Source of the DNA: an uncultured Burkholderiales bacterium
GTDB taxonomy: Bacteria > Pseudomonadota > Gammaproteobacteria > Burkholderiales > Usitatibacteraceae
Direction: 5' to 3'
Assembly (NCBI GenBank): GCA_964431425.1
Contig: CAYSKY010000001.1
Span: 1-32,645, forward strand
DNA length: 32,645 nt
A program made the translations under genes and the position numbers. Shown in pieces: positions 4,520 through 27,557 of this stretch. The notes beneath the pieces are model-generated. The model searched no databases, had not been told where the DNA came from, and saw nothing but the letters and a program-made list of their open reading frames with translations. Numbering within the stretch: the stretch's first letter is position 1; the number at the start of each line of letters is the position of its first letter.

Positions 4520-5785
4520 ATGCAAATTTTCTCCCTTCACAGTGGCGCCAACTGGATAGCAACGAAACCAGCGCAAGATGCTTTGCAGGACGGCGAAAAA
4601 GAAGAGCGTGACCCCGCGAAGGATGAAATCAAGCGTGTCCTCTCCGATTGCTTTCGCTGCAATAATCTGGTCGTCCTAGCAGGACTCGGTGCTTCGCTAC
4701 ACGTAAATGCTGAATGGGGTGCGGGTGGGCGCGTGCCAGTCGGCGGAAAGAAGATTGCACCAACAATGCCCGATCTCTGGCAGAAGGCCGAAGCCAAGAG
4801 CGGTGCCAATTTTAGTCAAGTCATAAGTCTGACAAGATTCCCAAAGGACGATCCCAATTTCAAAGGCAATATTGAAGCCCTCCTGTCGTATTGCAAAATT
4901 GGAGGTGAATTTAATGAAGGGGTCAACAAGACTCTTATTTCAACCTTCATTACCGACACCGAAGAAATAATCCGCAGTGAAGTTGATTTTCTGACTGCTG
5001 ATGATGGTGTCGAAGTGCATTCCGAGCTGCTTAGGAAGATTGCAAGAAGGTCAAATCGCAAGATTCGCACCAAGATTTTTACGACGAACTATGACCTCTG
5101 CTTTGAATATGCGGCCAGATATGGTCGGCATGTCGCAATCGATGGCTTCTCTCATTCCAGCCCGCAAGTCTTTGACAGCATATATTTCTCATATGACATC
5201 GTAAAACGGGAGGCCAGCCCCGATAGCCATGACTTCATTTCAAATGTTTTTCATTTGTACAAATTGCATGGATCTATAGACTGGGAAAAGAACACCACGA
5301 CCAATGAAATTCAGCGCGTTCCAGGTACCAAGAATCCCGTTCTGGTCTATCCGCGAAACACAAAGTACGAGTTGGCTTTTGAGCAGCCATACATCGAAAT
5401 GATGTCAGCGTTTCAAACGGCAATTCGCCAACCGGAAACGGCGTTGTTGGTGGTCGGATTCGGATTCAATGACAACCATCTAGCGGAACCGATACTTTCC
5501 GCTATTCGTTCCAATCTAAATCTGAAGGTCGTTATCTGTGACCCAGCATTGGCGCCCAAATCCGATCCAGAGCCAGCGAAAAATTCGGCGGGTTCAGCAG
5601 AGCTGAACCCGCATCTTAAAAAACTTGCTTATCTCATAAGCAAAGGGGATGCACGGTTGTCGCTCATTAATGGAACGTTCCAAGAGCTCGTTCCCGTACT
5701 GCCGGACATCGCGGCACTTACCGATCTTGAACAACATATGGATCGGGTAAGGCAGTTGCGGGGGCAAGAAAATGGCCAACAGTAA
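4520..5785 (+). CDS. SIR2-like (SIR2_2) protein, the SIR2 partner of a SIR2-HerA defence pair
   Basis: Motifs seen: NLVVLAGLGASL, IFTTNYDLCFEYAA, LYKLHGSIDW and LLVVGFGFNDNHL. The ATG at 4520 is preceded by AAGAGG. The 3' end overlaps the herA-like start by 14 nt. Confidence 0.8.
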   Translation: MQIFSLHSGANWIATKPAQDALQDGEKEERDPAKDEIKRVLSDCFRCNNLVVLAGLGASLHVNAEWGAGGRVPVGGKKIAPTMPDLWQKAEAKSGANFSQVISLTRFPKDDPNFKGNIEALLSYCKIGGEFNEGVNKTLISTFITDTEEIIRSEVDFLTADDGVEVHSELLRKIARRSNRKIRTKIFTTNYDLCFEYAARYGRHVAIDGFSHSSPQVFDSIYFSYDIVKREASPDSHDFISNVFHLYKLHGSIDWEKNTTTNEIQRVPGTKNPVLVYPRNTKYELAFEQPYIEMMSAFQTAIRQPETALLVVGFGFNDNHLAEPILSAIRSNLNLKVVICDPALAPKSDPEPAKNSAGSAELNPHLKKLAYLISKGDARLSLINGTFQELVPVLPDIAALTDLEQHMDRVRQLRGQENGQQ

Positions 5786-7490: not shown

Positions 7491-9193
7491 ACAATAAACA
7501 AAAACTCGAACTTACCTGGATCGGAAAGGAAAAGCGCCCGCGTCTGGAGCCGCGCATTCTGTTGGAAGATCCGGAGAAGTCCTATCACGCCAAGCGTCGG
7601 GTTTCGGACGACGACATATTCGACAACCGACTCATCTTCGGCGACAACCTGCTGGCGCTGAAAGCCTTGGAGGCAGAGTTTGCCGGCAAGGTGAAATGTG
7701 TGTTCATTGACCCACCTTACAACACCGGTAGCGCCTTCACCCACTACGACGATGGATTGGAGCATTCTATTTGGCTGGGTTTGATGCGGGATCGACTGGA
7801 GATAATCCGACGACTGTTATCAGATGATGGTTCATTGTGGATCACCATTGATGACAACGAGGCACACTACCTGAAGGTGCTGTGTGACGAGGTTTTGGGG
7901 CGGCGAAATTATGTAACCAGTGTCGTGTGGGAAAAAGATAAAGGGAGGAGAAGCGACACCACGTTTTCTGCTTCACATGATTATGTTTTGATTTATGCGC
8001 GTGATCCGGAGCGATTTGCTAAGTCCAGAAACCTACTTGATCGTACTGAGGGTCAGCTTGATCGATATCGAAATCCAGACAATGACCCAAGAGGACGATG
8101 GCTCCAAGGCGACAATGGCACAGCAAAAAGTGCTAGTGAAGGATCTCGGTTTCCAATAACGCTACCATCTGGTCGAGTAGTTGTGCCGCCACCAAGTCGA
8201 GGTTGGAGTTTTTCGCGTGACACGCTTGAGACTGCCCGAACAGAAGGGCGAGCGTACTTTGGTGCCAATGGCGATGGCATGCCAATCATCAAACGATACT
8301 TATCCGATGTTCAGGATGGGGTCGTTCCGAGAACATGGTGGTCAGCTGATGAAGCGGGCCACAACCAAGAAGCTAAGAGAGATCACTTAAACAAGCTTCT
8401 TCAGGGAATTGAGCCATTTCCAACGCCAAAGCCAGAGCGGTTGCTTGAACGAGTTCTTGCAATCGCGACTAACGAAGGTGATATCGTTCTTGATTCTTTC
8501 GCCGGCTCCGGCACCACCGGCGCAGTCGCCCATAAAATGGGCCGCCGCTGGGTCATGGTCGAATTAGGTGTGCACTGCCACACGCACATCATCCCGAGAC
8601 TGCAGAAGGTCATCGACGGCGAGGACAAGGGTGGCATTACAGAAGCAGTTGACTGGCAAGGCGGCGGCGGTTTCCGGTATTACAAGCTCGCGCCCAGCCT
8701 AATCGTCAACGATCGCTGGGGAAACCCGGTCATCAACCCGGAATACAACGCCGCGCAGCTCACTGAGGCGCTTTGCAAGCTGGAAGCATTTACCTATGCA
8801 CCGTCCGAATCGCAGTGGTGGCAGCACGGGCATTCCAGCGAGCGCGATTTCATTTACGTCACGACGCAGAATCTTTCTGCCGAGCAATTGCAGGCGTTGT
8901 CGGACGAGGTGGGTAGCGAGCAAAGTCTGCTGGTGTGCTGCGCGGCCTTCCACGGCATGGCGGCTGCCAAAGCATCGGAGCGCTGGCCGAATCTGACTTT
9001 GAAGAAAATACCGAAGATGGTACTGGCGCGGTGCGAATGGGGGCATGACGATTACAGTTTGAATGTGGCGAATTTGCCGATGGCCGCGCCTGCCCCTCAC
9101 CCTAGCCCTCTCCCGGGAGGAGAGGGGACTAAAGTGGTGAAGGGCAAGAAAGCGGTACCCGGTCAGGGTGGGCTGTTTGGGGACGGTGAATAA
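7487..9193 (+). CDS. mod: Site-specific DNA methyltransferase, type III Mod-like (N6-adenine/N4-cytosine class, DPPY motif)
   Basis: CVFIDPPYNTG places DPPY at nt 7709-7720. FAGSGTTGAVAHKMGRRWVMVE is the AdoMet-binding motif. I prefer the ATG at 7487 (ATGA overlap with herA) over the track start at 7472. The TAA stop overlaps the res ATG. Confidence 0.85.
   Translation: MNNKQKLELTWIGKEKRPRLEPRILLEDPEKSYHAKRRVSDDDIFDNRLIFGDNLLALKALEAEFAGKVKCVFIDPPYNTGSAFTHYDDGLEHSIWLGLMRDRLEIIRRLLSDDGSLWITIDDNEAHYLKVLCDEVLGRRNYVTSVVWEKDKGRRSDTTFSASHDYVLIYARDPERFAKSRNLLDRTEGQLDRYRNPDNDPRGRWLQGDNGTAKSASEGSRFPITLPSGRVVVPPPSRGWSFSRDTLETARTEGRAYFGANGDGMPIIKRYLSDVQDGVVPRTWWSADEAGHNQEAKRDHLNKLLQGIEPFPTPKPERLLERVLAIATNEGDIVLDSFAGSGTTGAVAHKMGRRWVMVELGVHCHTHIIPRLQKVIDGEDKGGITEAVDWQGGGGFRYYKLAPSLIVNDRWGNPVINPEYNAAQLTEALCKLEAFTYAPSESQWWQHGHSSERDFIYVTTQNLSAEQLQALSDEVGSEQSLLVCCAAFHGMAAAKASERWPNLTLKKIPKMVLARCEWGHDDYSLNVANLPMAAPAPHPSPLPGGEGTKVVKGKKAVPGQGGLFGDGE
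9106..9126. repeat. GC-rich hairpin (8-bp stem CCCTCTCC/GGAGAGGG, 5-nt loop) inside the 3' end of mod
   Basis: ccctctcc-cggga-ggagaggg sits within cctcaccctagccctctcccgggaggagaggggac and is translated as PHPSPLPGGEGT. The sequence resembles REP/MITE-like hairpins that are usually intergenic. Confidence 0.5.
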
Positions 9194-12885: not shown

Positions 12886-14355
12886 TCACGGGTCAAGGGA
12901 TCCACACGCTGACTTTGTGAAAATCGCAGTGGCATGACCATAAATACAGATCTCCTTCTGCGCAGGGTCAATCGGTGTCGTCCAAGGGCGATAACGGCAG
13001 ATATCGGGCGACGTTTTTGATTGAGGGGCTACGCATGCTCCATACAGCGGACAACCGACGAGCTGTTCTCTTGAGTCGTCATCCAGACTTTCAAATTCAC
13101 TGGTGGACCAAATCTCGGTACCTTGAAAGTGTGGCGCAACAAAAGAGATGATTGCTTGATACCGCAAGTTTGATATGTCATGGGGATCTCCTATTGGCAC
13201 AAACAGCGCGGCTTCTTTCCCAAGCTCCTGGTAAATATGACACGGAGGTATCTTCGTCATCAGTTCGGCAAGGGCGGCCGCTGGATCCGGCGCAAGTAAC
13301 ATGGAAAGGTCAAAAAACGGGTCTGCAGCACGCATCGCTAAGTAGTCTTTGAATTTGTCTTCTATCGACTGAATCGCCGGCGCAAGGTCTTTGCCTAGCC
13401 GCTTATAGTTCTCCATCAAAGGGGCCAACATCTTGGTGAACAAGTCTACAAGATTCGCGTTGAGGTCCAAGAGTACGCCGTGTACGACGAAGGCCGGGAA
13501 TGGACTGGCTTCCAATGGAAAACCGGTGTCTTTCAACCGTTGGCACAAATAGACGAATCGAGCGCCTGGGTCCGTGTATTGGAGGGCAAGCGTTCCTAAC
13601 CGCAGCAAGTGCATAGCAGGCGCATCACCGCCAGAGTAGTACCCGTAAACTGCCCGTAGGACACGATATGGCGTCGCAGGAATGCTGCCCATATCCATCG
13701 TCATTCCAAAGTGTTTTAGAAAAGCCCGCTGCGCTTCGATTGCGAGTCCTTCGCAAATCATCTCTGTGCCGAATTCGACATCAAAGTCAACGATATTCCC
13801 GGTAGTATCCGTTTTCCGCAAGCTCAGATGAGCGCGGGCGGCCTCTAGGGTGCTCGCGCCGAAATCGAAACTGGCCTTTGTCGTCCACGCCCGAGTGACT
13901 TCAATTTGGTCACCATACTTTTCTTCATCGAATCGAGTGTCAGACGGCGTAGTCTCGCCTTGGATTAGCTTCCTGAGATTTGCGTGAGTTGCGATACTAT
14001 TTTGAGCCGGGCCGGACAGGATTGCGGACCCCTTCGACTGTCTATTTGGTTGTAGCGTATCCATGAACTCGACAATTCGACGAAGCTGCAATACAAACTC
14101 GTAGAGACCCGAAATGGTCGAAATGTTCTGCAAGTAGTGCAAATACTCATGCACGAATACGGCGAGTCCCTCGATATCAGAGGTGGTGACGTCTTGTTGG
14201 CCGTTCTTTGAAGCCGTTGACGTGGCGCCGCTCGCACCGGCCGGCACCGGAAAGACCTGATTGTCCTTACTTAACCGGATGATAAATGCGTGTGGCTGGT
14301 ATAAACCTTCGGCATCCATTGCTTCGCGTCTGAGGTGGTCTAGTATTTTCTTCAT
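12886..14355 (-). CDS. Hypothetical protein with an HExxH motif (putative Zn-metallopeptidase-like) and a Cys-rich C-terminus; third gene of operon Y
   Basis: FVHEYLHYLQN places HEYLH at nt 14137-14151. The last ~60 aa carry 6 Cys (GCPLYGACV...DICRY...EICIYGH...SAC). The ATG at 14355 follows GAAGGG and lies 79 nt downstream of the giant gene's stop. The track extension to 14655 overlaps that gene. Confidence 0.6.
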   Translation of the reverse strand: MKKILDHLRREAMDAEGLYQPHAFIIRLSKDNQVFPVPAGASGATSTASKNGQQDVTTSDIEGLAVFVHEYLHYLQNISTISGLYEFVLQLRRIVEFMDTLQPNRQSKGSAILSGPAQNSIATHANLRKLIQGETTPSDTRFDEEKYGDQIEVTRAWTTKASFDFGASTLEAARAHLSLRKTDTTGNIVDFDVEFGTEMICEGLAIEAQRAFLKHFGMTMDMGSIPATPYRVLRAVYGYYSGGDAPAMHLLRLGTLALQYTDPGARFVYLCQRLKDTGFPLEASPFPAFVVHGVLLDLNANLVDLFTKMLAPLMENYKRLGKDLAPAIQSIEDKFKDYLAMRAADPFFDLSMLLAPDPAAALAELMTKIPPCHIYQELGKEAALFVPIGDPHDISNLRYQAIISFVAPHFQGTEIWSTSEFESLDDDSREQLVGCPLYGACVAPQSKTSPDICRYRPWTTPIDPAQKEICIYGHATAIFTKSACGSLDP

Positions 14356-14434
14356 ATGACACCCTTCGGTTAAGCTAACCTGCGGCCATATTCCTTGGCG
14401 TCGCTTTCTATCCAATGACCCATCAGATTCAGTG

Positions 14435-17400
14435 TTACGTAACCAATCTCTCAAATTCGCGTGTATTGGATATTTCCACGCCATCCTCCCTGTAGCTTCT
14501 CGCAATCGTTGAGCGCTCGGAACAACCTGCACCAAGCTCAAGGACTCTGGAATACCCCTCGGCCGACGCAACCACGAGCCAGCCTTTGCCACATCGATCA
14601 TCGAATCGCGGGCCTTCGCGGTCGACTGGACCATCCTGCCAGTAAACGGATTCAACCATTAGCTTCCCTGTGCTATCGCGCCATCGGAACAGACCGTGCT
14701 CATCAGGTATCCAATCCAACTTCCGGCACATAACAGGATTCGCCGCTAACCACTCATCTTGTCCGGCGACTGCCAAAAGCGGTGTGCCACGTATGACCGC
14801 CGTTAAGTCAGGCCGTGGACCGAGCCTGTCGGGGTAGTCAGACGCATACCAGGATCGATATGCCTCCAGCACTCTGCGGCGAGCGACCCCAGCCGTATCG
14901 AGGGAATGGTTGTGGTGCGCCTCCGCGAAACAGAGTTCCAATTTGCGTCGCTCGCGCGCATGGGTCCAGTCATAACCCGCGATGACGGTCACTTCGCCGA
15001 TGATGGCGAATTGCGATTCTGGATGACTCACAAACTGCAGCTCATTCATGTTTTCGTGCTTTGCCCATTCCGCGCATTCGCTTCTTTGATGCGGAATCGA
15101 CAAAGGTATGAACGGGGGCCTTACGTCAGGTCTGATGATTAGCGGATCTGCAATCCGGGCCAGCAGCCAAGCATGAAAAGATCGCGCGCTTAGCTTTTTC
15201 GCATCGACAAGCTCTCCGATGATGTGCCTGATCGCCCGATAGACAAGCGACGTCCTGGGACGTCGAAATGCCAGCTTGATGTCCAGTGAGTTGAGCTGTT
15301 CCCGCAATTTGCCTTCTGCGTCTGCGTTCCATAGCGTGACTGGTGCCAGCCTATGCATGATTTGCATACAGCGTTCCAATAGCACTTCGAATTGGACGTC
15401 GATCTGCTCTGCCAGGGCGCGGATTTCACTATCAAACGGCGCAACAATCTCAAAGGCATCACCAAGGTCCGGCAATGGTTCGCCAGGCGTCACCATCGCT
15501 GCCGTCACGGCACGCTGGCTCGTCGCAAGAGGTGGAAGCGACATGTTGTAAATGGGAGGCAACTCCGTCTTCGCGATTGTTGTTGGAGATGAATTGGCGT
15601 CCACCATTGCAAGCAGCTGCCGTGCCTGACGACGAACCCCAAAATCCGCATGTGATTCAAGTAGCCTGAGATTGGGGACCAGAACGGAAAAATCGGCGTC
15701 CAACATTCCTGCGGATAGGTTTAGCGCGCAAAGCAAATAGACGACTCCATCCGAATTGCCGTCGTACACCAAATGTTTCGCTATACACGCCAGAATCTCG
15801 GTGCGGTTGCCGGTCACGAGCAGGTCAAGAAGGCAGGTCTGTGCTTCCATTGCCAATTCATTGACGCGCGACCCCAGCAGGGCAACCACCGCGTCCACGA
15901 CAATCGCACAGGCGGCTTGTGATGGCCGATCACTCGAAAGTAGGCGTTGACGAGGCGTGTGTTTAAACTCATTCAACTCAAGAAAGTGCTGCTCAATTTC
16001 GCCCCAGAGAGCCTCGATGGGGACGGCCTGAAAGAGAAAACTCTCGAAATCCTCCAGTCCCGTAATCCGTTCGCGCGCGCCGCGATAAGATGCGCGATAA
16101 TCTTCCACCAAGGCGTTGAGCAGGAATGGGCGCCATTTTTCAGCGTCGATTTCGAGCAGGCACCGCGCTGTTTCAATTCGCGCGCCGCCATCGTATTGGT
16201 GAAGCCAGCCCCCCGGTTCGGATCGACCAAATGCCTCAAGCGCAGCTCGCCCGGCGAGTTCTCGCTCTCCACGCGCAAGTATGATCTTGCTGGTCGTGGC
16301 AAACAGTGCTCTCGTACTGCCGAGCTTGCCGAGAAGTTCCGGGAGCGCCATTAGTTCGTCGTTGGTCATCCCTTCGAGCTTGTCTGCGAGGACGCGGTCC
16401 CACGGGAGATATGTGACGCGTTGCGTTTGACCGATTAACGCCTTGAGATCCGCGAAGGTCGCTATTCGGGCGACAATCTCACTTTCGGAGAGTGACCCGC
16501 CATCGGCCAAGACAATCGGTTTGTCTGAGGTCCGCTCTGGCGCTTCCCAGCTGTTCTCACAACGCTTCTGGGCTGCTTCCTTCGCAGGGCCTCCCTCACG
16601 AAGTCCCGCCGCCATTCCCCTGAACCAGGCTTTTCTATGCGAAGGAAACTCCTTGGTATTGATGACTTCGGATAGGAATTCAGCAAGGTCCGCGGCGAAA
16701 TTCTTCGCATTGAGCTCCTCCGCACGAGTGAACAGCGCTTGACTGATTTCGCTGGCAAGATTTGCATTGAATGGCACCAGCAGGGCCGCAATGATTGGTG
16801 CAACAAGGTGCACGTTTTTGACGTCAGCATCCAGCAGGCCAAGCGCCAGACCCTCGACTCCCGCGCAATGCTCCAGAACTTGGGCGTGCAGTAAGGTTTT
16901 TCGTATGCGAGCCCCTAGATCCGGACTCGATTGATATCCGGTTCGGATGAGCGTGGTTGCCGCCTGCTGAATGGAACTGCCACGATGGCCGTTCACCAGT
17001 GAGCTGATGGCAGGCAGAAAGAATTCAACTTTGCTTGCGGCGAGCGCCGGATTCGATTTGCTCAATCGCAATAGCCATCGAGTCCAGTCCAACAACTGCG
17101 AGTCCTCGTCGTGATAGATCCCAAATGTGTGACTAAACGCGCTCGCTAACTCTATGCGTGCCGCATCGGTATTTCCGGCCAACGCCCAGGCCTTCGATTG
17201 CTCGAAATAGCTGTCAAATTGCTCTGTCGGCCCTTCATCGGCTGAATGCAATGTCGCGATGAACTTAAGGCGGCGCGCCAAATTCTCTTGTGCATCTCCG
17301 CGCCGCCAGAATTCGAGCGACAGCGTCCGCATAAGTGACTGTGACCAGTAATTCTGCGTGGCTGAATCGTGCCAATATTCCTCGATCGCAGCGGCCAGTG

Positions 17401-20400
17401 TCGAGACACGTTGTGCGCCGTGAGCCGCAACCGCGGACACCATGAAACGGAAATACTCTTCGCGGAGCGCGCGATACTGGGACCAGGTTGTCAACTCATC
17501 GTGGGTCCATGCGCGGTGAAATAGTCTCAATGCCGGCTGGAGAGCATGGAGCAGGACCTGGCCTTCCATGAATTCGCCCCGGATCGCACTGCCCCAGACA
17601 TTCGCCACGAGCACAAGCATCCTTTCGAATAGCACACCTGCGGCACGGCGTGTCTCGTTGCCGCTCGGCACGGCCACAACGGGGTCGACAGGGCGCCCAA
17701 GCGACGAGAGCAGGCGATTTAGTTTGATGCGAATCGCAAAAGTGTGCAGGCTGTTTAACTGGTTGAATTCGTGGCTTACCTCAGCCAATGGCGGCTGCCC
17801 GCGTTGCGCGACGCTATCGGCAAAATCGCTTTCGCCTCGCATCCTCAGCAGTGCTTCGGCAGCAACGAGTCGCGCCGCCGACTCATTGTCGTCAGCCGGC
17901 AGAGAGGCGACAAATACGTCGAGCTCACGATCGACCGGAAGTACGCTGGAAAGCGACGTTGCGCATTGCCGGGCCAACAATGGACGCAGATGGATATAGG
18001 CTTTGCGCTGCTCAATTTCGTCGATGAATTTCTCGTACAACGTGCGATCGTCCCGCTCAATCAAGGCTAGCCCGGTTTGCCACACGAGGTTTTCGTGCAA
18101 CCGCTGCTCCGCGTCCTCTTGCCGTTCAAAGTGCGCTGGCTCCACTCGTATACTCTCGATGGCGCCGAACAGCTTGTCCAGCGGCCTGAAGTAGTGCGCG
18201 ACATCGCACCATTTTTCGAGGATGCCTTCAGCATTTCCGTCATGGGCCGACGAAGCATCTGCTCCGGTAATCAAATCAAGCGGCTCACATTTTTCGAACA
18301 GCGCGCTAGCAGCGTTGATTGCACCAACGCTCGCCATTTTCAGACAGAGCTCAAGAGCATCCGACGTACCAATTCGAAGCGCATCGTGTTTCACGGCATG
18401 CGAAAGTGCAGCATCGGCGCCGTCCAAAAGCATGATCAGGTTGGCGAGGTTGTGCTCCGCCATCGCACCGCCACGTTCGCCTAGCTCGTGTTCGAGAAGC
18501 CAGGTGCGCACGATTGCAAGGCCATCCTGGGTCTTGCCAGCCGCCTGCAGAACCAGATCAAGGTCTTCGCGAATTAATCCGAAGGATCGGGACGCAAAAA
18601 ACTGTTCGCGAAAGAACGATTGCGAACCCAGCGAAATCACGGCGGCGAATTCGTTGGCCTGAAAAAGGTGATAAAGCCGCTCCCAGCGTATCGGCGAACC
18701 CTTGTCAGCTCTATCGCATAGCACAGCCAGTTTCTTCTGCAACTCGATCTCGCGCTCGCCGGCATCCTGCGTCACCAGGTCGTTACGCGTGGTTTGAAGC
18801 AAAAACTGCTTAAAGCTATTGTGGAAGAAACGCCAGTAGTTGGGTCCGGGTTTCTCAAAATAGTGGTGCGCGTCGCGGCGAAATTCTTCGAGCGCTTGAT
18901 CCGTGAATACGCTTCGCAAAAGACGTAGATCCACACCATCCCGAAGGCGGCAGACCAGCGCACATATCTCCTTGGTTTGGAATGATCGTATCGCTAACCA
19001 GAACGTACGGTAGTCTGTTTCGATGTCACCGCTAAAGGTGTCCGCATTGGCTAAGACGTCGTTGCGTTCGCTGTCGGTGCCACACGCCGTCAGCTTTTCG
19101 ATGAGATAGGACAATGCCAGTGGGTGCCCGGCGGAGAGCTCATGAAGACGCTCATGGGAGCTTTCCCCATCTATTTTCCCCACCCCTGCGGCGTCGACTA
19201 TTGAATAGACGGCTTCACGTGAAAGCCGTTGCATTTGGATGGTCCGACCCTCGGCCTCGAGCTGCGCTCGAATGCGTGGACTAAGGCCTTCGAGGTCAAG
19301 GGTCTGAGAGCCACAAATAATTAACACACCGGGTGGAAGCGCATCCAGAGTGGGCAGTTCCTCAATGAGAGAGCGCACCGGATTCTGTTCGCGTTGAATG
19401 TGGTCGAGACCGTCGATCAGCAAGAGCGTTTTTATACTTCGCTCTTTCCATTGCCTACCAAGCTCGGCCAATTGCTCGAAGAAGGCCTCTTTGAATTCTT
19501 CCGGCGTCGCAGGAAAAGCTTTGGTTCGTTCAAGCTGATCGATTCCGGCTGTTCGCAGCATGAGAAACAAATCATGCCAAAACTGTCCAGCTTCACCGCG
19601 GCCCTGGAGGGGATCGTTTCGCACATAGGCGTAATACTTGATTACCCGTAACCCTGGCTTGTACCTAAACGTGTGGGTCAAAGTGGTGGACTTGCCCGCG
19701 CCAGGCGAGCCAAGCAACGCAAGGTAGCCCCTGTCCAAGCGCCCCACCAGATCTTCCAGGGCTTGCACGGTTCCGGCGATGGGCCGATAGAGCATCTCGG
19801 ACACGGGAAATTCGTGTCGAAAGCGAAGCCGGAAACGTTCTGTCCAACCCAATTGCTCGAGTAGCTCCGCTCTCGAGAATTCAATCTTGCGTACAGGATT
19901 GGCGACGCTCGTAAAGAGAAAATCGGCCAATTGCCGCAAATCCGTAATTCGACGTCCCAACTGGGATGTCGAACCGTTTATCGGATCCTGATAGCCGAAA
20001 TGGCAAGTGAAGCTCTCGAAGAATCCATCGAAATCGGTCCCGATCCCCGACTTTTGTCGAAGCGCTTCCACAGCGTTGTCGAAAGATGCAGTTTGTTTCG
20101 GAAACCCTTGGCGCCCGAGATCAAACGCTCGTACAAACTCGTTGAAAGAACGCTTTACGCCGTCGTCCCCAATTGGGACAAAGGCGTGAACTGACGGATA
20201 TTCGTTGGTGATGAGGTGAACCCGAACGGTTCGTCCAGGATACCTCGCTGAGATATCCCTCCATCCTAATGCAAGACCGGCAACAAGCGAGGTTTGCGCG
20301 CGGCCATCTTTGTCGGCAATGAGTTGATTGAATGAATACAAGCCAGGTTTATCCGTCCACTTGACTTGATAGGCATCGACAGAATTGGCCGTGACTATTT

Positions 20401-20632
20401 GTATGTCATCGGCACTTCCTGCATTTGGATCAGCAAGACGAATGGACTCCAGGTCGCCATCGAGTAAGCGGTCGTAGATCAACCCCGCACCGACCGCATA
20501 CTGCGTCCGGAAACCCATGGCCGCTGCGCGCTCGCCATCGCCCGAAGGGCGCCGAACGGTCGATCTGCTAGTCACGTGCCTGGCCCATTCTTTATCGCCA
20601 CCATTTACCGCTTCTCGAACTCGGCTAGCCAC
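14435..20632 (-). CDS. Giant STAND-type P-loop NTPase with an N-terminal Cap4/DUF4297-like PD-(D/E)xK nuclease domain and ~1600 aa of helical repeats (Avs/NACHT-like architecture)
   Basis: This is the longest ORF in the window.
- The N-terminus GFRTQYAVGAG...DDIQIV...AYQVKW fits a D...QxK nuclease.
- Walker A is GSPGAGKST at nt 19685-19711.
- LLLIDGLDH is Walker B-like, followed by VLIICGSQT.
- The rest is Leu/Ala-rich helical sequence.
- The start is uncertain: GTG 20632 (28-nt overlap with the upstream gene) or ATG 20518. Confidence 0.7.
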   Translation of the reverse strand: MASRVREAVNGGDKEWARHVTSRSTVRRPSGDGERAAAMGFRTQYAVGAGLIYDRLLDGDLESIRLADPNAGSADDIQIVTANSVDAYQVKWTDKPGLYSFNQLIADKDGRAQTSLVAGLALGWRDISARYPGRTVRVHLITNEYPSVHAFVPIGDDGVKRSFNEFVRAFDLGRQGFPKQTASFDNAVEALRQKSGIGTDFDGFFESFTCHFGYQDPINGSTSQLGRRITDLRQLADFLFTSVANPVRKIEFSRAELLEQLGWTERFRLRFRHEFPVSEMLYRPIAGTVQALEDLVGRLDRGYLALLGSPGAGKSTTLTHTFRYKPGLRVIKYYAYVRNDPLQGRGEAGQFWHDLFLMLRTAGIDQLERTKAFPATPEEFKEAFFEQLAELGRQWKERSIKTLLLIDGLDHIQREQNPVRSLIEELPTLDALPPGVLIICGSQTLDLEGLSPRIRAQLEAEGRTIQMQRLSREAVYSIVDAAGVGKIDGESSHERLHELSAGHPLALSYLIEKLTACGTDSERNDVLANADTFSGDIETDYRTFWLAIRSFQTKEICALVCRLRDGVDLRLLRSVFTDQALEEFRRDAHHYFEKPGPNYWRFFHNSFKQFLLQTTRNDLVTQDAGEREIELQKKLAVLCDRADKGSPIRWERLYHLFQANEFAAVISLGSQSFFREQFFASRSFGLIREDLDLVLQAAGKTQDGLAIVRTWLLEHELGERGGAMAEHNLANLIMLLDGADAALSHAVKHDALRIGTSDALELCLKMASVGAINAASALFEKCEPLDLITGADASSAHDGNAEGILEKWCDVAHYFRPLDKLFGAIESIRVEPAHFERQEDAEQRLHENLVWQTGLALIERDDRTLYEKFIDEIEQRKAYIHLRPLLARQCATSLSSVLPVDRELDVFVASLPADDNESAARLVAAEALLRMRGESDFADSVAQRGQPPLAEVSHEFNQLNSLHTFAIRIKLNRLLSSLGRPVDPVVAVPSGNETRRAAGVLFERMLVLVANVWGSAIRGEFMEGQVLLHALQPALRLFHRAWTHDELTTWSQYRALREEYFRFMVSAVAAHGAQRVSTLAAAIEEYWHDSATQNYWSQSLMRTLSLEFWRRGDAQENLARRLKFIATLHSADEGPTEQFDSYFEQSKAWALAGNTDAARIELASAFSHTFGIYHDEDSQLLDWTRWLLRLSKSNPALAASKVEFFLPAISSLVNGHRGSSIQQAATTLIRTGYQSSPDLGARIRKTLLHAQVLEHCAGVEGLALGLLDADVKNVHLVAPIIAALLVPFNANLASEISQALFTRAEELNAKNFAADLAEFLSEVINTKEFPSHRKAWFRGMAAGLREGGPAKEAAQKRCENSWEAPERTSDKPIVLADGGSLSESEIVARIATFADLKALIGQTQRVTYLPWDRVLADKLEGMTNDELMALPELLGKLGSTRALFATTSKIILARGERELAGRAALEAFGRSEPGGWLHQYDGGARIETARCLLEIDAEKWRPFLLNALVEDYRASYRGARERITGLEDFESFLFQAVPIEALWGEIEQHFLELNEFKHTPRQRLLSSDRPSQAACAIVVDAVVALLGSRVNELAMEAQTCLLDLLVTGNRTEILACIAKHLVYDGNSDGVVYLLCALNLSAGMLDADFSVLVPNLRLLESHADFGVRRQARQLLAMVDANSSPTTIAKTELPPIYNMSLPPLATSQRAVTAAMVTPGEPLPDLGDAFEIVAPFDSEIRALAEQIDVQFEVLLERCMQIMHRLAPVTLWNADAEGKLREQLNSLDIKLAFRRPRTSLVYRAIRHIIGELVDAKKLSARSFHAWLLARIADPLIIRPDVRPPFIPLSIPHQRSECAEWAKHENMNELQFVSHPESQFAIIGEVTVIAGYDWTHARERRKLELCFAEAHHNHSLDTAGVARRRVLEAYRSWYASDYPDRLGPRPDLTAVIRGTPLLAVAGQDEWLAANPVMCRKLDWIPDEHGLFRWRDSTGKLMVESVYWQDGPVDREGPRFDDRCGKGWLVVASAEGYSRVLELGAGCSERSTIARSYREDGVEISNTREFERLVT

Positions 20633-23196
20633 ATGAGCAATGTGTCCACGTCTTTTGCGAGTACCGTTGGTTCCGGTAACTCCATCGGTGTCTCGTCCGG
20701 TGCTTTGTGTTCAGTGGTCGAGTAGCGCGTCATGAGATCGTCAATCAAATCAACGTCACTCTGAAGTATTTTGGTCAGTCTCGCCAACTTCCCTTTGGTT
20801 TTAATATCGAGTCGATAACGGCCGACGATATTGTCGAGTAACACATATTCAACGACCGACTCAACCAGAATACGGAAATCGCTGCAGGCCGCCTTGAGAT
20901 TTTTGTCGTATTGGTCCATGTCGCCAGCCTTAAGCGCCTTCGATATAGCTGGCATCTCGTGGTCGCGGATCCTCGCAAGGCCCTGCTTAGGCTTTGATTG
21001 GCGCGGCGGCAGAGAACCGATGTTGCCAGACAATCCGCCCGTCCGTAACACTTGGTGGGTCACTACTCTGAGCTTAAATAACTTCCCTTCTTTTTTCGCT
21101 AGATTTTCCAACGTCTCGCGGGCCTCTTCCAGCGCCGCCAGCAGGGACAGTCGATGGGTAAACACAATCACTTGTCGCGACTGTGCCAATTCGGCCAGTC
21201 GTTCCGCGACTCGCGCTTCAAAGCGGTGATCCAATGAGGAAATTGGGTCGTCGAAGATAAATGGGGTCGACCGGCCCGATGCAAGGATATCGGCGAGAAA
21301 TGCGGCCATTGCGACAATACGCATTTCTCCTTCGCTTAGTACTTCCGGCACCGGTGCGCGCTTTTTCGCACCCTTCAGCGCCAAATGGAATGACACCTTG
21401 CCTTTGCCCTCATTGAGAGAAGCCGGAACGACAGGAATGGTACCGCCGCCGAGCTTGGCGAGTTCCTCGGTAAAGCGCGATTGATGTGCCTCAGCGAGCT
21501 CCTTGGAGGCCAATTCATTTTTCTTTCCCGTGAGGGCATGAGTACGTGCAAGCGCCTCTGCGGTTGCCAACTGGCTGATGGAAGCCAGACGCTTTACCTC
21601 GGCCTCAATTGCAGTCTTGTTTTGCGACAGCCATTCCTTGGCTCGCAATTCTGCAAGTCGCTTTTCTTTTTGTGCGCGACCGCCTTCGGTCTTGAGTGCG
21701 TTTAGAGAGCTCTCTTCAGCAACGACAGCCGCAGATCTTTTCTCAAGTGATGCGTCGATTTCGGACCAATCGAGAAGCGGCAGTGCAGAAATCGTTATGC
21801 CTGGCACCACCAGCGCGGCACGTGCCGCCAAAGCGGCGTGAATGGTGCTGTCGTTGCCGGTTTCCACCTCAGCTGCGACTAATCTCAAACTCCAATCCTG
21901 CAAAGTCGGGATAGCAAGAAAGCCCTTCTCCAATTGTGTGAGTTCGCTCGCTGCCTTGACGGCTTTCGCTTCCAGACCGCCCTTTATAAACGATTCAAAA
22001 GACTTCAATCGCTCCTTCGCCGCCTCGTCAAGCGGCTGTTGGCACAATACACAGGCAGAACCGTCATGAATGGCGGGAAACGTCATGCCTGGATAAGCGC
22101 CATGTGTCGAATATGCGCGAGCCTCCTCCCACATCCGTCGCCACGTGTCGCTTCCAACCTCCGGCAGCGCCGCCCCTGCAAAGACTTTTTCAGCATTCTC
22201 GGTAGCCGCCTTTCGAGAGGCGACGGCATCGACACGCTTGTCCCGCAAACCAGTCAGTTGTTCGTCGGAATACGACTGCTTGAGTTGAGCGACCGTATCC
22301 TTGAGGGCTGTGAGTTGAATCTTCAGTCTAGCAATTTCTTTTAACCGGTTGTCTATATTTCCCTGCTGAAGAGCGCTTTCCGTTGAGATTCGCTCGGCGT
22401 TCTCCTCGGCCGAATAGGAACAGGCCGCGTCGATGATGGCCTGTTTGGGTCCCGTATTCAAACGCGACAGGAAAATATGCGCCGGCGTTGCTATATAGGC
22501 AGGCGGCATCGTGGGCAACGCGGATACCAATGCGCTCTTCCGCTTCTGAAGCTCTCTGACGACTTCGTCACAGACATCGATCAACGTTGACAAGAGTCGA
22601 AGCCGGCGCGGCTCGTAAGTGGCTTCCCGTTTGGTGTTCACATACGATCCGGCCACCAGTACATCGAACACGTGTGCGTGCCTCAAGGGATCCACCGGTC
22701 CCTCGGTTAAGGTCCAATTATGGGGCGTCAGCGCCCCGTCCAGTGCATACGATATTTCGGCGCGAATCGTGGTCTTGTCGTCGGAAAAGACGTTTGAATG
22801 AAGTGTGTGTTTGACCTTGGCCCCACAAACCTCCTTCAAAAGCCGGGAGAAGCCAGTCTTTCCCGCGCCGTTGGCCCCATAGATCACGGTCATTTCGGCA
22901 TCGGCAAAACTGAGCGATGCGTCATGTCTGAGTGCATTGACTCCTTGAACGCCTGACAATTGTTCAAGGCGAAGCAACGGGCCGGTTTCAGCCGCATCAA
23001 ACGATCCCTTGGCCCCGACCGAAAAAGTCTTTGGCAACTGATTCATCGCCTCGGCGAAGCAGGTGTCCGCATACGCACCGATTTCCTTGGCGCTTGGAAA
23101 CGCGGGCGCAGCATGAAGGTGGTGCATTGCTGCCTGCATCCATTTGGGCCTCTCCCCGAGCCACTGATCAAATCCTGCATTGGGTCCGTTCGTCAT
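20605..23196 (-). CDS. AAA_13-family ABC/Rad50-like ATPase with a CxxC zinc hook, RloC/PrrC-like; first gene of operon Y
   Basis: - Walker A is GANGAGKT at nt 22855-22878.
- The central coiled-coil-like region contains CVLC at nt 22042-22053.
- Also seen: LSEGEMRIVAMAAFLA, FIFDDPISSLD and QVIVFTHR.
- The C-terminal tail carries FRILVES...STTEHK.
- The ATG at 23196 is preceded by AAGGGAAGG. The track extension to 23361 has no support. Confidence 0.7.
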   Translation of the reverse strand: MTNGPNAGFDQWLGERPKWMQAAMHHLHAAPAFPSAKEIGAYADTCFAEAMNQLPKTFSVGAKGSFDAAETGPLLRLEQLSGVQGVNALRHDASLSFADAEMTVIYGANGAGKTGFSRLLKEVCGAKVKHTLHSNVFSDDKTTIRAEISYALDGALTPHNWTLTEGPVDPLRHAHVFDVLVAGSYVNTKREATYEPRRLRLLSTLIDVCDEVVRELQKRKSALVSALPTMPPAYIATPAHIFLSRLNTGPKQAIIDAACSYSAEENAERISTESALQQGNIDNRLKEIARLKIQLTALKDTVAQLKQSYSDEQLTGLRDKRVDAVASRKAATENAEKVFAGAALPEVGSDTWRRMWEEARAYSTHGAYPGMTFPAIHDGSACVLCQQPLDEAAKERLKSFESFIKGGLEAKAVKAASELTQLEKGFLAIPTLQDWSLRLVAAEVETGNDSTIHAALAARAALVVPGITISALPLLDWSEIDASLEKRSAAVVAEESSLNALKTEGGRAQKEKRLAELRAKEWLSQNKTAIEAEVKRLASISQLATAEALARTHALTGKKNELASKELAEAHQSRFTEELAKLGGGTIPVVPASLNEGKGKVSFHLALKGAKKRAPVPEVLSEGEMRIVAMAAFLADILASGRSTPFIFDDPISSLDHRFEARVAERLAELAQSRQVIVFTHRLSLLAALEEARETLENLAKKEGKLFKLRVVTHQVLRTGGLSGNIGSLPPRQSKPKQGLARIRDHEMPAISKALKAGDMDQYDKNLKAACSDFRILVESVVEYVLLDNIVGRYRLDIKTKGKLARLTKILQSDVDLIDDLMTRYSTTEHKAPDETPMELPEPTVLAKDVDTLLMWLAEFEKR

Positions 23197-23544: not shown

Positions 23545-25917
23545 TCACTTGTTCGCTGGCAAGCCGTCGATGTGGCCGGTCTTCAAGCAATTCGCAAACG
23601 CTTGCCCGTCAACCAGCTTGAAACCATAACTGTCAGCGTCCTCAATTGCCTTTGGTGTAAATGTTGATGTGGTAACGATCATCCCACATGTTCCGGAAGG
23701 GAACCGGAGCAAGCTGCCGGCGAGCTCACGAATGATGTTTGGTCCGACTGTTCGTGCGGAGGCATAGCATTTGCACTGTATCGCCCAAACCACATCCTGT
23801 TTTTCATCGTGCGCAAAGATATCGATTCCTCCATCGCCATTCCTGGAAGCGGCTTGATGAATGACACGAAATCCCATTTGCTTCATCAATGCGGCAACGT
23901 CTTTCTCAAAATCAAACCACGCGGATCGCGACCCGGCCGGCGCTTTCTGAAGAGTTCGATACAGGATGGCGGTTGCTGAGCGACTTCGATATATCCGTTG
24001 CCGCAAAGGCGCGGCAGGATCGCCTCGTCTGTGCGGACGAACGAAGGTATAACCTCTGGGCACACCAAATCCATAGCGGGCAGCCAGTAACATTTGGGTT
24101 GCGGTGGCATTTTCTGCTTTTCGCAAATGCCCCTCGACGTCGTGTGGCGATCGATGTGGCGAGTCTCCCGTTTCTCGAAGAAACGCCGTCACATCCGGCT
24201 GGTAATATCGGACTCGTGGCAGGTAAATAATCGACAGTGCTTCATTGGTGGAACAGCGAACGCCTTTTGCGGGCTTAGAAGAAAACTGGGCATGGCGATC
24301 CTCCACAACGAGAAAATCTCTGACCACAGAGGCGACCACCAGGACAAGCGCCAAGGCGGCATGCGCGTTTTCTTCGACGGTTTTCTCGTCGGCGTCGGCC
24401 CGCAGGATTTGCGGCGGACTGTATTGCCCCGTGGAGATATTGACGGGAATCATCAGGAATCTCTCTTGGGAGTCCCGGAAAATACCCGCGAACTCCCCTT
24501 CGATCTCGTATAGGTCGAGATACTTCAGGGTCCCAATGTTCACCTGGACACGCGCACCCCATGGCGCGCTCCACTGGCGATTCTCTCGGGCTTCCGTCAA
24601 AAGCCCTCGAATCGCTTCATCAGCGTCCGCTTCCGTGCAGGCCAGTTTCACGTCCGCCATCTCCTTATACAGAGCGAGTCTGGGAACATGCATGTCTCGG
24701 CCAGTGACAAAATTCCCCAAATCAAATAGCTCCTGAAATTCGAAATCAATCCAATAGTCGCTTGCTTGTTCTCCCAACGCGACGGGATCAATGTCGATGT
24801 ATCGCACGACAAAGTCACCGTCTCCCACGCGACCATCCAGCCAAGGTCGACGCTGACCGCATTTCGTGGACTCAGGGCTAAGTATTGCTGTCCAAAGTAA
24901 CTCTCGCACCACCCACTTGATAGGTTCGACCACAACCGGATGGGTATAGGAGCGCAGGACACCATGGACTAAATCGCCCAGTTTCTTGGCGTCCGGGAGC
25001 GCAGCTATCACCAATGCCAATTGATCGGAAATCGTATTCGTCGAAGTGGTGACACATCGAACAACCTCGTCAAAAAACGGCATTGTCGCCGGAGCGTTCG
25101 TTCGAGCTTCTGCGTTTACATAAACGCCATTCGAGAACTGGGTATCGCGTAAATCTTCTAGCGCGATTGCAAGGGTCTTGAGTTGACCATCATAGTGACG
25201 CGCCCATCGAGCGCGCATTTTGTCCCGTATAGACAAGTCGGCGTGCCAGTTCGATTTGGGATCGAGCATAAGCAACCAGTAAGCAAGCTCGTCGTCTCGG
25301 ACCAAGGATTTTTCGTGATCCTCCCACTTGAGCATGACTCGAAATGCCTCGAGCATGTCCGGATGCTCGGGATGCTTTGTGAAGTCGGCTAAATAGAAAG
25401 GGCTAAGTTGACCTCCAAAGCTGACGGAGAATGCGGCACGACCACGTTCGGCAACGGCCCGGACAAATGCACTGTCGGGGCTAACGAAGATCCTTGGAGA
25501 TCGTTGGCCACGAATGACGAGAGTGAAACTGACCAATGATCCGGCGCGATGGGGCCAGTTCCAAGTAACAACGCCGGTCATATTCAAACGTGCAGCCCGG
25601 AAATTCGTTTCATCGAGAGCGTGCAATATGGCGACGGGAGTGCCGTCTGCCGCAATCGTCCAGACCCCCCGAAACTTTGAGGTTCCCACCAAATTGCGCG
25701 ATAGGGCAATCAACTCTCCGTCCGTGATGGGCGATTGCGGACATTTTTCGAGTGGTGCCGAAGGGCATTTCACTCGTTCGATGATTTCTTCCACCCAACA
25801 ACCTTTCGGCTCGTATAGCTGAAGCAAGTTTGCGCGCCCCGCCGACTCCTGGCAATTGAGGCGACGTATTAATTCATGATGGCGACAAGCGAATACCTGA
25901 TCTGTGAGTGCTTTCAT
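23545..25917 (-). CDS. Large protein with a C-terminal Mrr-type (Mrr_cat) restriction endonuclease domain and an uncharacterised ~660-aa N-terminal region; third gene of operon X
   Basis: The last ~126 aa (nt ~23548-23925) are FEKDVAALMKQMGFRVIHQAASRNGDGGIDIFAHDEKQDVVWAIQCKCY...GMIVTTSTFTPKAIEDA, giving the D...QxK layout of Mrr_cat. I recognise nothing in the N-terminal 660 aa. I prefer the ATG at 25917 to the TTG at 25932. Confidence 0.7.
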   Translation of the reverse strand: MKALTDQVFACRHHELIRRLNCQESAGRANLLQLYEPKGCWVEEIIERVKCPSAPLEKCPQSPITDGELIALSRNLVGTSKFRGVWTIAADGTPVAILHALDETNFRAARLNMTGVVTWNWPHRAGSLVSFTLVIRGQRSPRIFVSPDSAFVRAVAERGRAAFSVSFGGQLSPFYLADFTKHPEHPDMLEAFRVMLKWEDHEKSLVRDDELAYWLLMLDPKSNWHADLSIRDKMRARWARHYDGQLKTLAIALEDLRDTQFSNGVYVNAEARTNAPATMPFFDEVVRCVTTSTNTISDQLALVIAALPDAKKLGDLVHGVLRSYTHPVVVEPIKWVVRELLWTAILSPESTKCGQRRPWLDGRVGDGDFVVRYIDIDPVALGEQASDYWIDFEFQELFDLGNFVTGRDMHVPRLALYKEMADVKLACTEADADEAIRGLLTEARENRQWSAPWGARVQVNIGTLKYLDLYEIEGEFAGIFRDSQERFLMIPVNISTGQYSPPQILRADADEKTVEENAHAALALVLVVASVVRDFLVVEDRHAQFSSKPAKGVRCSTNEALSIIYLPRVRYYQPDVTAFLRETGDSPHRSPHDVEGHLRKAENATATQMLLAARYGFGVPRGYTFVRPHRRGDPAAPLRQRIYRSRSATAILYRTLQKAPAGSRSAWFDFEKDVAALMKQMGFRVIHQAASRNGDGGIDIFAHDEKQDVVWAIQCKCYASARTVGPNIIRELAGSLLRFPSGTCGMIVTTSTFTPKAIEDADSYGFKLVDGQAFANCLKTGHIDGLPANK

Positions 25918-25948
25918 GTGGCGGCCCCACAAACGGACCGCGCTGGCA

Positions 25949-26653
25949 TCAAAGGCCCAAGTAGAATTTCGCAGTTGTCCAGTTCGTGGCGAAATCCAGA
26001 GTCACTGACGCAAAATCAGCACCGATGTCTGCTGCGATGTGTTTCGTGCTGGGTTCAAAGTAGTCTTTGATGTTCGATGACAAGAACACGGCCTTTTCGT
26101 TGTGGCCATGTGCTCTGAGCGATTGAATGGCCTCTAGGTAGGTTTCCACCACCACGCAGTCTTTCATCGACTGTTTTCCCGTCGCACCCGGTGTTCTTGC
26201 CGAGTTGACTCTCAGGAAAGCCTTCCCAAGAATATCATCACTCCGGGGAACGATTGTTGCGGCCGCTACTAACCTGTTGACAACGTCTTGTGCTCTTTGT
26301 GCGTGACCCGTGAGATGTGCTGTATCCATAGCGCCACTCGCACCATACAAGCAGGCGACGGCGTCGATGTCTTTTGCGCGTGCTCGAAATTTAACCAGCG
26401 CAGCTTCTGCATCGTCGTAGATGGCTTGCGCATTGTCACCAAGTTCAAAGCTGACTTGCTCCGCGATCAAGACAACCAAGCCGCCGCCGCTTTCAGCGGT
26501 AGCCAACAAATCTTGCGCCGATTTTAAATTGGTGGGATTGACATCGTCACGCGTAATGGCTCGCATCATATCAAGAATGGAACAGGTGTCCAAGCACAGC
26601 ACAGGCTTGCCGAGCACACGGATTCGAATGAGGTCTTGCGGAGACAACCCCAT
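25949..26653 (-). CDS. PIN-like domain protein (putative nuclease); second gene of operon X
   Basis: The acidic-residue pattern fits a PIN fold: PVLCLDTCSILD near the N-terminus, VVLIAEQVSFE, KDCVVVETYLEA and VFLSSNIKDY. The ATG at 26653 lies 2 nt after the upstream stop (26656-26658). Confidence 0.5.
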   Translation of the reverse strand: MGLSPQDLIRIRVLGKPVLCLDTCSILDMMRAITRDDVNPTNLKSAQDLLATAESGGGLVVLIAEQVSFELGDNAQAIYDDAEAALVKFRARAKDIDAVACLYGASGAMDTAHLTGHAQRAQDVVNRLVAAATIVPRSDDILGKAFLRVNSARTPGATGKQSMKDCVVVETYLEAIQSLRAHGHNEKAVFLSSNIKDYFEPSTKHIAADIGADFASVTLDFATNWTTAKFYLGL

Positions 26654-26655
26654 TG

Positions 26656-27315
26656 TCAGTGGCTATCGTAGTGCCGCAAAAGCTCCAACGCCGTCTCATA
26701 ATTAGACGCGAGATCGTGGGCCTCGTCTTCCGGCCAGCGATCAACCTCGACGAGCCATCTGCGCAGCGTACCGGGGTCTGCCCTGTGTCCGCTTCGATGT
26801 GCGGCGACCAGGAAGTTGAACCACCGCTCCTGGTCTTTGGGATGCGAGGCACCGGTCGATTTGTTTGCGGCCCCAGAAAAGCTCCGGAGGGCTGCCGCGG
26901 GTTCCTCTCCCAACCAATCTTTAACGGTTTGGCGCGATTGTGTGACTTTGATCCTAAAATCGCTTTCGCCAGCAGCAGGCTTGGCAATTTTATCGACGAA
27001 GTCTTGCAAGACCGCGTTGTAGGTGGCGATGCTGATGGATCCCGTTTCCTTGGGAACGATGTTCGCGACCTTGTAACCACTGGTGTCTTGCCAGAGGACC
27101 AATCCGATTGTCGGAGCTTTGCTATCCGACTCCCGCGAAAACACGATGATGTCCTCGCCGCTTGAACCTAGCCCTTTCAGGTGGCTCTCTTTTTCGTCTT
27201 CATGCTTCCATGGCGGCTCCACTTGCTTAAGTAGCAATTCGCGAATGGAGGATATTGGTGCGTTTGTCACATGAAGAGACAAATCCTGGAAAACCTCTAG
27301 GTCATTGGTAGACAT
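26656..27315 (-). CDS. Hypothetical protein, no recognisable domain; first gene of operon X
   Basis: The frame is open with coding-like composition and is tightly coupled to the PIN-like gene. I chose the ATG at 27315 (MSTNDLEVFQ...); the track start at 27324 is a TTG. Confidence 0.55.
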   Translation of the reverse strand: MSTNDLEVFQDLSLHVTNAPISSIRELLLKQVEPPWKHEDEKESHLKGLGSSGEDIIVFSRESDSKAPTIGLVLWQDTSGYKVANIVPKETGSISIATYNAVLQDFVDKIAKPAAGESDFRIKVTQSRQTVKDWLGEEPAAALRSFSGAANKSTGASHPKDQERWFNFLVAAHRSGHRADPGTLRRWLVEVDRWPEDEAHDLASNYETALELLRHYDSH

Positions 27316-27506
27316 GGGGCTCAATCGAAGGATGAATTAAAGTCATTCTACATTTGGGATCGATTTGGCCAGCGCTAGTCAGAGAGAAGAAGGCGTATCT
27401 GTGACGAGAGGTAATTCGCTCCTTGCCGCGACGGATATGCCGGTGTTGGCGGCAATCAAACGGCCCATGTTTTCCGCGCCCTTCCCTTCAAAACACTGCT
27501 ATACTA

Positions 27507-27526
27507 GTGATAACTATCATTATCAC
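27507..27526. promoter_or_regulatory. Inverted repeat GTGATAA-N6-TTATCAC in the divergent region upstream of the integrase
   Basis: gtgataactatcattatcac lies 32 nt upstream of the integrase ATG. It directly follows a TATACT hexamer (27500-27505). No convincing -35 element is found at 17-bp spacing. Confidence 0.3.
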
Positions 27527-27557
27527 AGACGAAAACGACTGTGCTAAAGTAGCGGTT

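Follow-up and report, generated by a model that had tools for sequence, protein, structure and literature searches.

A closely spaced gene trio in a Burkholderiales defence island: an Avs-like giant, a PDC-S06 ATPase and an HExxH protein that are probably independent modules

Three co-directional genes lie on the minus strand between positions 12,886 and 23,196 of a 32,645-nucleotide stretch of DNA (hereafter the window; contig CAYSKY010000001.1 of assembly GCA_964431425.1) from an uncultured bacterium of the order Burkholderiales. In the direction of transcription they encode an AAA_13 ATPase (gene 1), a giant STAND protein (gene 2) and a protein with an HExxH motif (gene 3), and the original prediction, made from the letters of the window, put the three together forward as one candidate undescribed defence system. 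Comparative analysis contradicts that proposal: in the 82, 43 and 87 loci collected around relatives of gene 2, gene 1 and gene 3, respectively, homologues of the three are not found together. Because relatives of the three genes never co-occur in these more than 200 related loci, with a single real exception described below, the trio does not read as one three-gene system. Instead, it is probable that the window holds three independently evolving single-gene modules, arranged head to tail within a defence island, maybe co-transcribed, and functionally independent of one another. The island itself is best read as sitting on an integrative or plasmid-like element with an integrase and ParAB.

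Gene arrangement and distribution of the three families

The proposed layout of three tightly spaced, co-directional genes was confirmed from the DNA, open reading frames (ORFs) and junctions alike. Gene 1 occupies positions 20605-23196 (minus strand; 863 amino acids), its TAA stop codon being at 20605-20607; the public gene call begins 19 codons later, and both the homologues and the PADLOC model favour the long form. Gene 3 occupies 12886-14355 (minus strand; 489 amino acids) and starts at ATG 14355. It is separated from the stop codon of gene 2 (14435-14437) by the 79 nt originally reported (14356-14434), a spacer that contains a GAAGGG ribosome-binding site, of Shine-Dalgarno type, 6 nt 5' of the ATG. 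For gene 2, the two starts first considered were both found in the DNA as described: GTG 20632, which opens the maximal ORF (14435-20632; 2065 amino acids) and would create a 28-nt overlap with gene 1, and ATG 20518, which follows the gene 1 stop after 86 nt and would yield 2027 amino acids. A third option, GTG 20575, is preferred to either. Every gene 2 homologue carries a P-x-x-G-E-R motif 6-10 residues past its initiating Met, and because the window copy of this motif is located upstream of ATG 20518, the start was placed at GTG 20575, from which the N-terminus parallels that of the closest homologue (P0004). This GTG is, on the pattern of homologue N-termini, the likely start, giving a gene 2 of 2046 amino acids (14435-20575, minus strand) and a spacer of 29 nt (20576-20604) between the gene 1 stop and the GTG. 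A consensus scan of the minus strand found neither terminator-like nor promoter-like sites at the two junctions, and an arrangement of this kind makes co-transcription of genes 1-3 plausible.

The distribution of each family was examined by cross-searching loci and as much as 10 kb of flanking sequence with tblastn and profile hidden Markov models (HMMs). The gene 2 set (n = 82) consisted of 80 genome loci from different species and two contigs of the closest relative; the gene 1 set (n = 43, of which 28 had a match longer than 500 amino acids) was drawn from plasmids, metagenome contigs and viral contigs; and the gene 3 set comprised 87 loci. None of the 82 gene 2 loci contained a relative of gene 1 or gene 3, none of the 43 gene 1 loci a relative of gene 2 or gene 3, and none of the 87 gene 3 loci a relative of gene 2. 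Matches to the gene 1 profile were obtained in two of the 87 gene 3 loci, one of them weak (L163); in the other (L128), approximately 6 kb separates a gene-1-like from a gene-3-like gene, which matches the spacing in the window. The latter region (73-9173 of a metagenome contig) encodes a gene-1-like AAA_13 protein, a Fic protein, a Gabija-like AAA_15/AAA_21 ATPase with a UvrD-like helicase, and a gene-3-like protein, and both the gene-1-like and gene-3-like genes are apparently frameshifted. As the interval is filled by the Fic gene and the Gabija-like ATPase-helicase pair and contains no giant, L128 was rejected as support for the trio.

The neighbours of each family are similarly varied. 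Neighbour clustering revealed no family present in more than 6 of the approximately 80 gene 2 loci; recurrent neighbours include RadC and integrase, and the largest group has one type I HsdR member. The same approach applied to the gene 3 loci identified no common neighbour family, save for near-identical contigs and two RES neighbours. The closest relative of gene 2 (53% identity) is solitary, lying between the pheST, HU and MerR genes and a RadC-integrase island, and gene 2 relatives on annotated IncC and Rhizobium plasmids are solitary as well. Relatives of gene 1 (40-45% identity) are likewise solitary, on replicons of Ralstonia, Aeromonas, Pseudomonas and Paraburkholderia and on integrase-bearing contigs, and the annotated neighbours in the 28 loci with long matches differ from one to the next. 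Among plasmids, a DNA-level search with the 10.3-kb region found no near-identical copy of the trio.

Several observations weigh against the independence of the three genes. Firstly, their shared orientation and short gaps, together with the lack of predicted terminators and promoters between them, mean that they could form one transcription unit. Secondly, the exact trio is seen on one contig only, and even the closest homologues are remote, at 45% (gene 1), 53% (gene 2) and 34% (gene 3) identity. Additionally, in three independent loci (L003, L092 and L095) a relative of gene 3 is at most three genes away from another STAND- or KAP-type NTPase, neighbours which might hint at a loose affinity of gene 3 for NTPases of this kind. 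A functional link among the three genes that is specific to this lineage is compatible with the sequence.

The Avs-like giant and the PDC-S06 ATPase

Gene 2 belongs to a family with more than 180 full-length homologues of approximately 2,050 amino acids, which share 24-53% identity (typically around 30%) and are distributed among Proteobacteria, Bacteroidota, Chloroflexota, Planctomycetota and other groups, including representatives in Klebsiella, E. coli, Vibrio and Rhizobium and on IncC plasmids. From its N-terminus, the protein is composed of a putative Cap4-like PD-(D/E)xK nuclease, a NOD module, an extended stretch of probable helical repeats and a Trp/Gly-rich C-terminal domain, with more than 1,200 residues located C-terminal to the NOD. 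This order reproduces the tripartite Avs architecture of an effector, a Walker-bearing NOD and a long C-terminal region. Invariant across the family are D30, D37, D38 and Q51-x-K53 of the nuclease (numbered from ATG 20518), the Walker A sequence GSPGAGKST and the Walker B sequence DGLDH. The earlier description of gene 2 as an Avs-like STAND protein with an N-terminal PD-(D/E)xK domain is largely upheld, by the invariant D...DD...QxK residues and by the structural comparison that follows.

At the level of sequence profiles, the matches of gene 2 are partial. All Pfam matches (AAA_16, AAA_22, NACHT and Cap4_nuclease) are sub-threshold, and the Cap4/DUF4297 model (PF14130) scores 18.6 bits, below its cut-off of 26.2, and matches one of 22 family members. 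The Avs1b models of PADLOC and NCBIfam align with residues 252-745 alone, equivalent to positions 211-695 of a 1924-position model, with an E value of 2.5e-29 for PADLOC (up to 1e-38 among family members); the NCBIfam model (NF041810) reaches 85.3 bits over residues 253-744, short of its cut-off of 1500. Every family member examined matches the Avs1b model in the same manner, over the NOD alone. No Avs3 model was found among the PADLOC matches of gene 2 and its relatives, and neither PADLOC v2 nor NCBIfam gives the family a name. Structural comparison reaches further: an AlphaFold2 model of residues 1-800 (predicted local distance difference test score (pLDDT) 81, predicted template modelling score (pTM) 0.71) comprises the Cap4-like N-terminus, the NOD and a helical region and has SeAvs3 as its top PDB match by Foldseek (8dgc_A; E 2e-17, probability 1.00, 906 columns), a match that spans the gene 2 N-terminus, and further matches are to other STAND/NLR structures. 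A search of PDB sequences with the gene 2 profile did not retrieve 8DGC even at E <= 10, returning only P-loop noise.

Two known systems invite comparison with gene 2. SeAvs3 (AVAST type 3; Cap4-STAND-TPR; PDB 8DGC) displays the same order of nuclease, NOD and helical sensor, has a chain of 2028 residues compared with the 2046 of gene 2 and is, like gene 2, a single gene; the two proteins differ, however, in that they share just 14% identity in the structural alignment and have no sequence-level match. AVAST type 1 is composed of Avs1a, an MBL nuclease, and Avs1b, a protease-STAND protein (PMC12799240). The NOD and winged-helix region of gene 2 are homologous to those of Avs1b, and the lengths of the proteins are comparable (approximately 1,930 amino acids for Avs1b and 2,050 for the gene 2 family), but the N-terminus of gene 2 is a putative Cap4-like nuclease where that of Avs1b is a trypsin-like protease, and the gene upstream of gene 2 encodes a PDC-S06 ATPase rather than an MBL nuclease. 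The PADLOC models of Avs1a and Avs1c match neither gene 1 nor gene 3. Matching AVAST type 1 only in part and AVAST type 3 not at all in sequence, gene 2 appears to represent a separate and apparently unnamed Avs-type family; our reading, drawn from sequence and predicted structure, is of an Avs-type STAND receptor that combines a Cap4-like nuclease with a NOD related to that of Avs1 and a sensor particular to the family. A 2026 census recognised at least 90 structurally distinct defence-associated STAND families, with Cap4 as a seed effector (PMC13581612), and the gene 2 family may be among them. The original prediction also held that Avs proteins are normally single-gene systems, which is true of the gene 2 family in the loci examined but not of AVAST type 1, a two-gene system (PMC12799240).

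On the basis of its architecture, predicted structure and conserved residues, gene 2 most likely works in a manner analogous to Avs3 and Avs7. In the Avs mechanism, binding of a phage protein by the sensor is followed by oligomerisation of the NOD, and the assembled Cap4 nucleases cut double-stranded DNA (PMC13581612). By analogy with SeAvs3 and SeAvs7, we infer that the long C-terminal sensor of gene 2 would bind a conserved phage protein, that ATP-dependent oligomerisation of the NOD would then gather the N-terminal Cap4-like nucleases, and that the gathered nucleases would degrade double-stranded DNA, aborting the infection.

Further observations concern the C-terminus and the spread of the gene 2 family. 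Within window positions 14435-15600 (gene 2 residues ~1650-2046), the C-terminal 170 or so residues are strongly conserved across phyla and do not resemble helical repeats; their consensus, W-(K/Q)-D-G-P...C-S-E-G-W-L-V-V-A-S, includes several invariant Trp and Gly residues, and invariant residues extend upstream to about residue 1735. This conserved domain could either belong to the sensor or have a second, separate function. The 90%-identity cluster of one family member (P0036) has 301 members, including sequences from Vibrio parahaemolyticus, V. vulnificus, V. cholerae, E. coli, Shewanella and Vreelandella, a range of genera that points to recent horizontal transfer, and family copies on V. 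cholerae IncC plasmids are located between tra genes (L215). At another locus (L069, 16077-19490), a 1137-amino-acid protein with a weak Cap4_nuclease match is encoded 13 nt downstream of a gene 2 relative, and could be a second Cap4-bearing defence protein stacked beside the giant.

The identification of gene 1 as an AAA_13 ATPase with a CxxC motif holds, its score against Pfam AAA_13 (PF13166) being 55.9 bits, above the cut-off of 36, and the CxxC being invariant. The protein aligns end to end with the PADLOC model PDLC04893 (PDC-S06; E 2.6e-285, 947 bits, residues 7-863 on model positions 6-859 of 862), and nothing sets it apart from this family. By sequence, then, gene 1 is a member of PDC-S06, a computational single-gene candidate, and its relatives occur singly, whether on plasmids, on integrative elements or on prophage-like contigs. 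Papers naming PDC-S06 merely list it, and no experimental validation was found in them. In an alignment of 19 sequences, the Walker A motif, C382-x-x-C385, the ABC signature, the Walker B motif, the D-loop and the H-loop are invariant, the CxxC (C382-V-L-C385 in the window) lying within an insert between the two halves of the ATPase. Equally invariant in the C-terminal domain are E779, D814 and H830, the last of which ends an (R/K)-x5-H motif; six positions before it, R or K predominates but is not strictly conserved. The C-terminal 198 amino acids have no Pfam match, and a PDB sequence search with gene 1 produced only generic ABC/SMC matches.

The likeness of gene 1 to RloC and PrrC, also put forward at the outset, is fair as a label for its architecture: the protein has an ABC/SMC-type ATPase head, its insert carries an invariant CxxC that, as a sequence motif, resembles the RloC zinc hook, and its separate C-terminal domain bears an (R/K)-x5-H motif reminiscent of HEPN Rx4-6H. 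Beyond architecture the comparison weakens. The PADLOC PrrC model covers just a 47-residue Walker B stretch of gene 1 (31 bits), and in the putative HEPN motif the arginine varies across the family. Furthermore, gene 1 is not linked to restriction-modification (R-M) genes, its immediate neighbours being the gene for the giant STAND protein and one of Mrr_cat type; the window's type III R-M operon is located approximately 8.7 kb away on the opposite strand, and relatives of gene 1 do not adjoin R-M genes. By analogy with RloC and PrrC, gene 1 would sense a DNA or infection cue via its ATPase and hook and then activate its C-terminal domain, an analogy less firm than the one drawn for gene 2.

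The HExxH family and its possible partners

The most novel piece of the locus is gene 3, which represents an uncharacterised family with, in its predicted model, an apparently new fold. It has no match in Pfam (peptidase families included), PADLOC or NCBIfam. An exhaustive search identified a family of 281 cluster representatives at E <= 1e-3, with members of approximately 470 amino acids, and in an alignment of 37 of them H69-E-Y-x-H73, N77, T80, E202, C435, C441, C453, W458 and C470 are invariant. The AlphaFold2 model, a confident one (pLDDT 88.8, pTM 0.91), places the HExxH on a long helix. A Foldseek search of PDB and BFVD with this model returned nothing at E <= 0.001, the best fold hint being a 51-column local match to peptide deformylase (E 0.84), and a PDB sequence search with gene 3 returned nothing.

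The invariant HExxH and the downstream E202 recall HExxH zincins such as ImmA/IrrE and the thermolysin-like gluzincins. Unlike these, however, the gene 3 model has no significant match to a known peptidase fold, the protein has no Pfam peptidase match, and the four cysteines invariant in its C-terminal part are not characteristic of zincins. Gene 3 is best described as a putative metal-dependent hydrolase, which probably binds metal. Of the earlier description as a putative metallopeptidase, the HExxH stands as an invariant feature and the assignment to a peptidase does not find a counterpart in any family or fold, such that the label, still putative, derives from the motif.

Relatives of gene 3 recur in conflict and defence neighbourhoods and have no defined partner. 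They adjoin RES genes (in two independent loci), PIN_12, HNH, UvrD-like, NACHT, KAP and Gabija-like genes, and some are located near TniQ, IS elements or housekeeping genes. The orientation of the neighbours varies and is convergent in two loci (L003 and L084). The loci with RES, PIN_12, HNH, NACHT-C (NCAB2), KAP NTPase and 2148-amino-acid NACHT-like neighbours are L170, L173, L098, L092, L095 and L003. Two candidate associations were considered and rejected: RES as a constant partner of gene 3, as just two independent loci share a RES neighbour, and the 2148-amino-acid protein of L003 as a relative of gene 2, as it has no BLASTP similarity to gene 2 and only weak NACHT matches.

These neighbourhoods bear on several alternatives to three independent defence modules. 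It is possible, if unlikely, that gene 3 is not a defence gene, but rather mobile-element or prophage cargo of unrelated function that lies by chance at the edge of the island beside radC. Such an origin would agree with the match of gene 3 to a phage orthologous group of no assigned function (phrog_15354, E 2.6e-13) and with the transposition and housekeeping genes that sometimes adjoin its relatives; it is more difficult to reconcile with the recurrence of RES (twice), PIN_12, HNH, Gabija-like, NACHT and KAP genes beside them. We give little credence to an elaboration in the opposite direction, by which the gene 3 family is a new defence-island enzyme that acts beside varied effectors and NTPases, maybe as a metal-dependent processing or regulatory protease, and that here modulates the Avs-like giant, probably encoded on the same transcript.

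A related proposal, that genes 2 and 3 form a module in which the HExxH protein is a lineage-specific accessory of the giant, such as a processing or regulatory protease, is in our estimation very unlikely. The 79-nt gap with its good ribosome-binding site and no terminator would suit such a module, as would the genes that adjoin gene 3 relatives, among them those for the NACHT-like 2148-amino-acid protein, NCAB2, the KAP NTPase, RES (twice), PIN_12, HNH and the UvrD-like protein. The pairing of a protease with an effector has precedent (PMC12799240), and the module would echo the protease-nuclease pairs of AVAST type 1, Hachiman and Lamassu. Yet gene 3 relatives are absent from the 82 gene 2 loci and gene 2 relatives from the 87 gene 3 loci, and the genes beside gene 3 share no common family and vary in orientation. 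In addition, the giant already has a putative nuclease effector fused to it, and the peptidase activity of gene 3 is putative, its predicted fold being unlike that of any known zincin. Lastly, a single integrated system, with a Rad50-like sensor ATPase, a STAND nuclease and a metallopeptidase working in concert, has tight co-directional spacing, an absence of predicted terminators and defence-type domains in all three genes in its favour, and is nonetheless highly improbable given that no pair of the families co-occurs outside L128, where unrelated systems intervene, that the gene 1 family is already catalogued as a single-gene candidate and that the gene 2 family is solitary everywhere examined, its closest relative included.

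The surrounding island and implications of the locus

The wider context of the trio is as originally described, namely a defence island on a mobile backbone with radC, an integrase, a type III R-M operon and SIR2-HerA. On one side of the trio are genes for Bro-N, DUF2130 and Abi_C proteins, SIR2_2 and HerA, an N6_N4 methylase with ResIII, and RadC; on the other side are genes for an Mrr_cat protein, a PIN_12 protein, a split tyrosine integrase, ParA and ParB. Genes for HsdR, PLD-helicase, AbiE, RES, PIN, Gabija-like, NACHT and KAP proteins are found beside relatives of the three genes elsewhere. No tRNA gene was found at the island boundary.

Three regions of the window outside the trio were noted in their own right. 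At positions 16-4415 (plus strand), upstream of SIR2-HerA, a series of overlapping or abutting ORFs encodes a 403-amino-acid product with no family match followed by the Bro-N, DUF2130 and Abi_C proteins, and these ORFs are further mobile-element or abortive-infection-type cargo. Upstream of gene 1, at 23545-27324 (minus strand), three co-directional genes with junctions of 16 nt and 2 nt encode a 222-amino-acid protein with no family match, a 234-amino-acid PIN_12 protein and a 795-amino-acid protein that is recognisable only by a C-terminal Mrr_cat nuclease (residues 671-782), a region that also matches the PADLOC PDC-S02 models; these genes may be a separate candidate module. Finally, the tyrosine integrase (27423-29466, plus strand) appears to be divided between an ORF at 27423-28997, which contains the DUF3701/SAM-like part, and an overlapping ORF in a different frame at 28954-29466, which contains the catalytic Phage_integrase part. 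This division suggests that the gene is frameshifted, a pseudogene or wrongly assembled; the GC content climbs locally to 0.65 at positions 28001-29000.

A three-gene system, if true, would be a new multi-component immune pathway, and the comparative evidence speaks against it. Given that the genes are probably independent modules, costly operon-level follow-up is avoidable, and the locus offers a clean example of defence-island stacking in which tight spacing mimics an operon. Within this stack, gene 2 draws attention to a widespread and apparently unnamed family of Cap4-STAND proteins of approximately 2,050 amino acids. Above all, gene 3 is worth pursuing, since its HExxH family is uncharacterised, appears to have a new fold and is found repeatedly next to toxin and defence genes.

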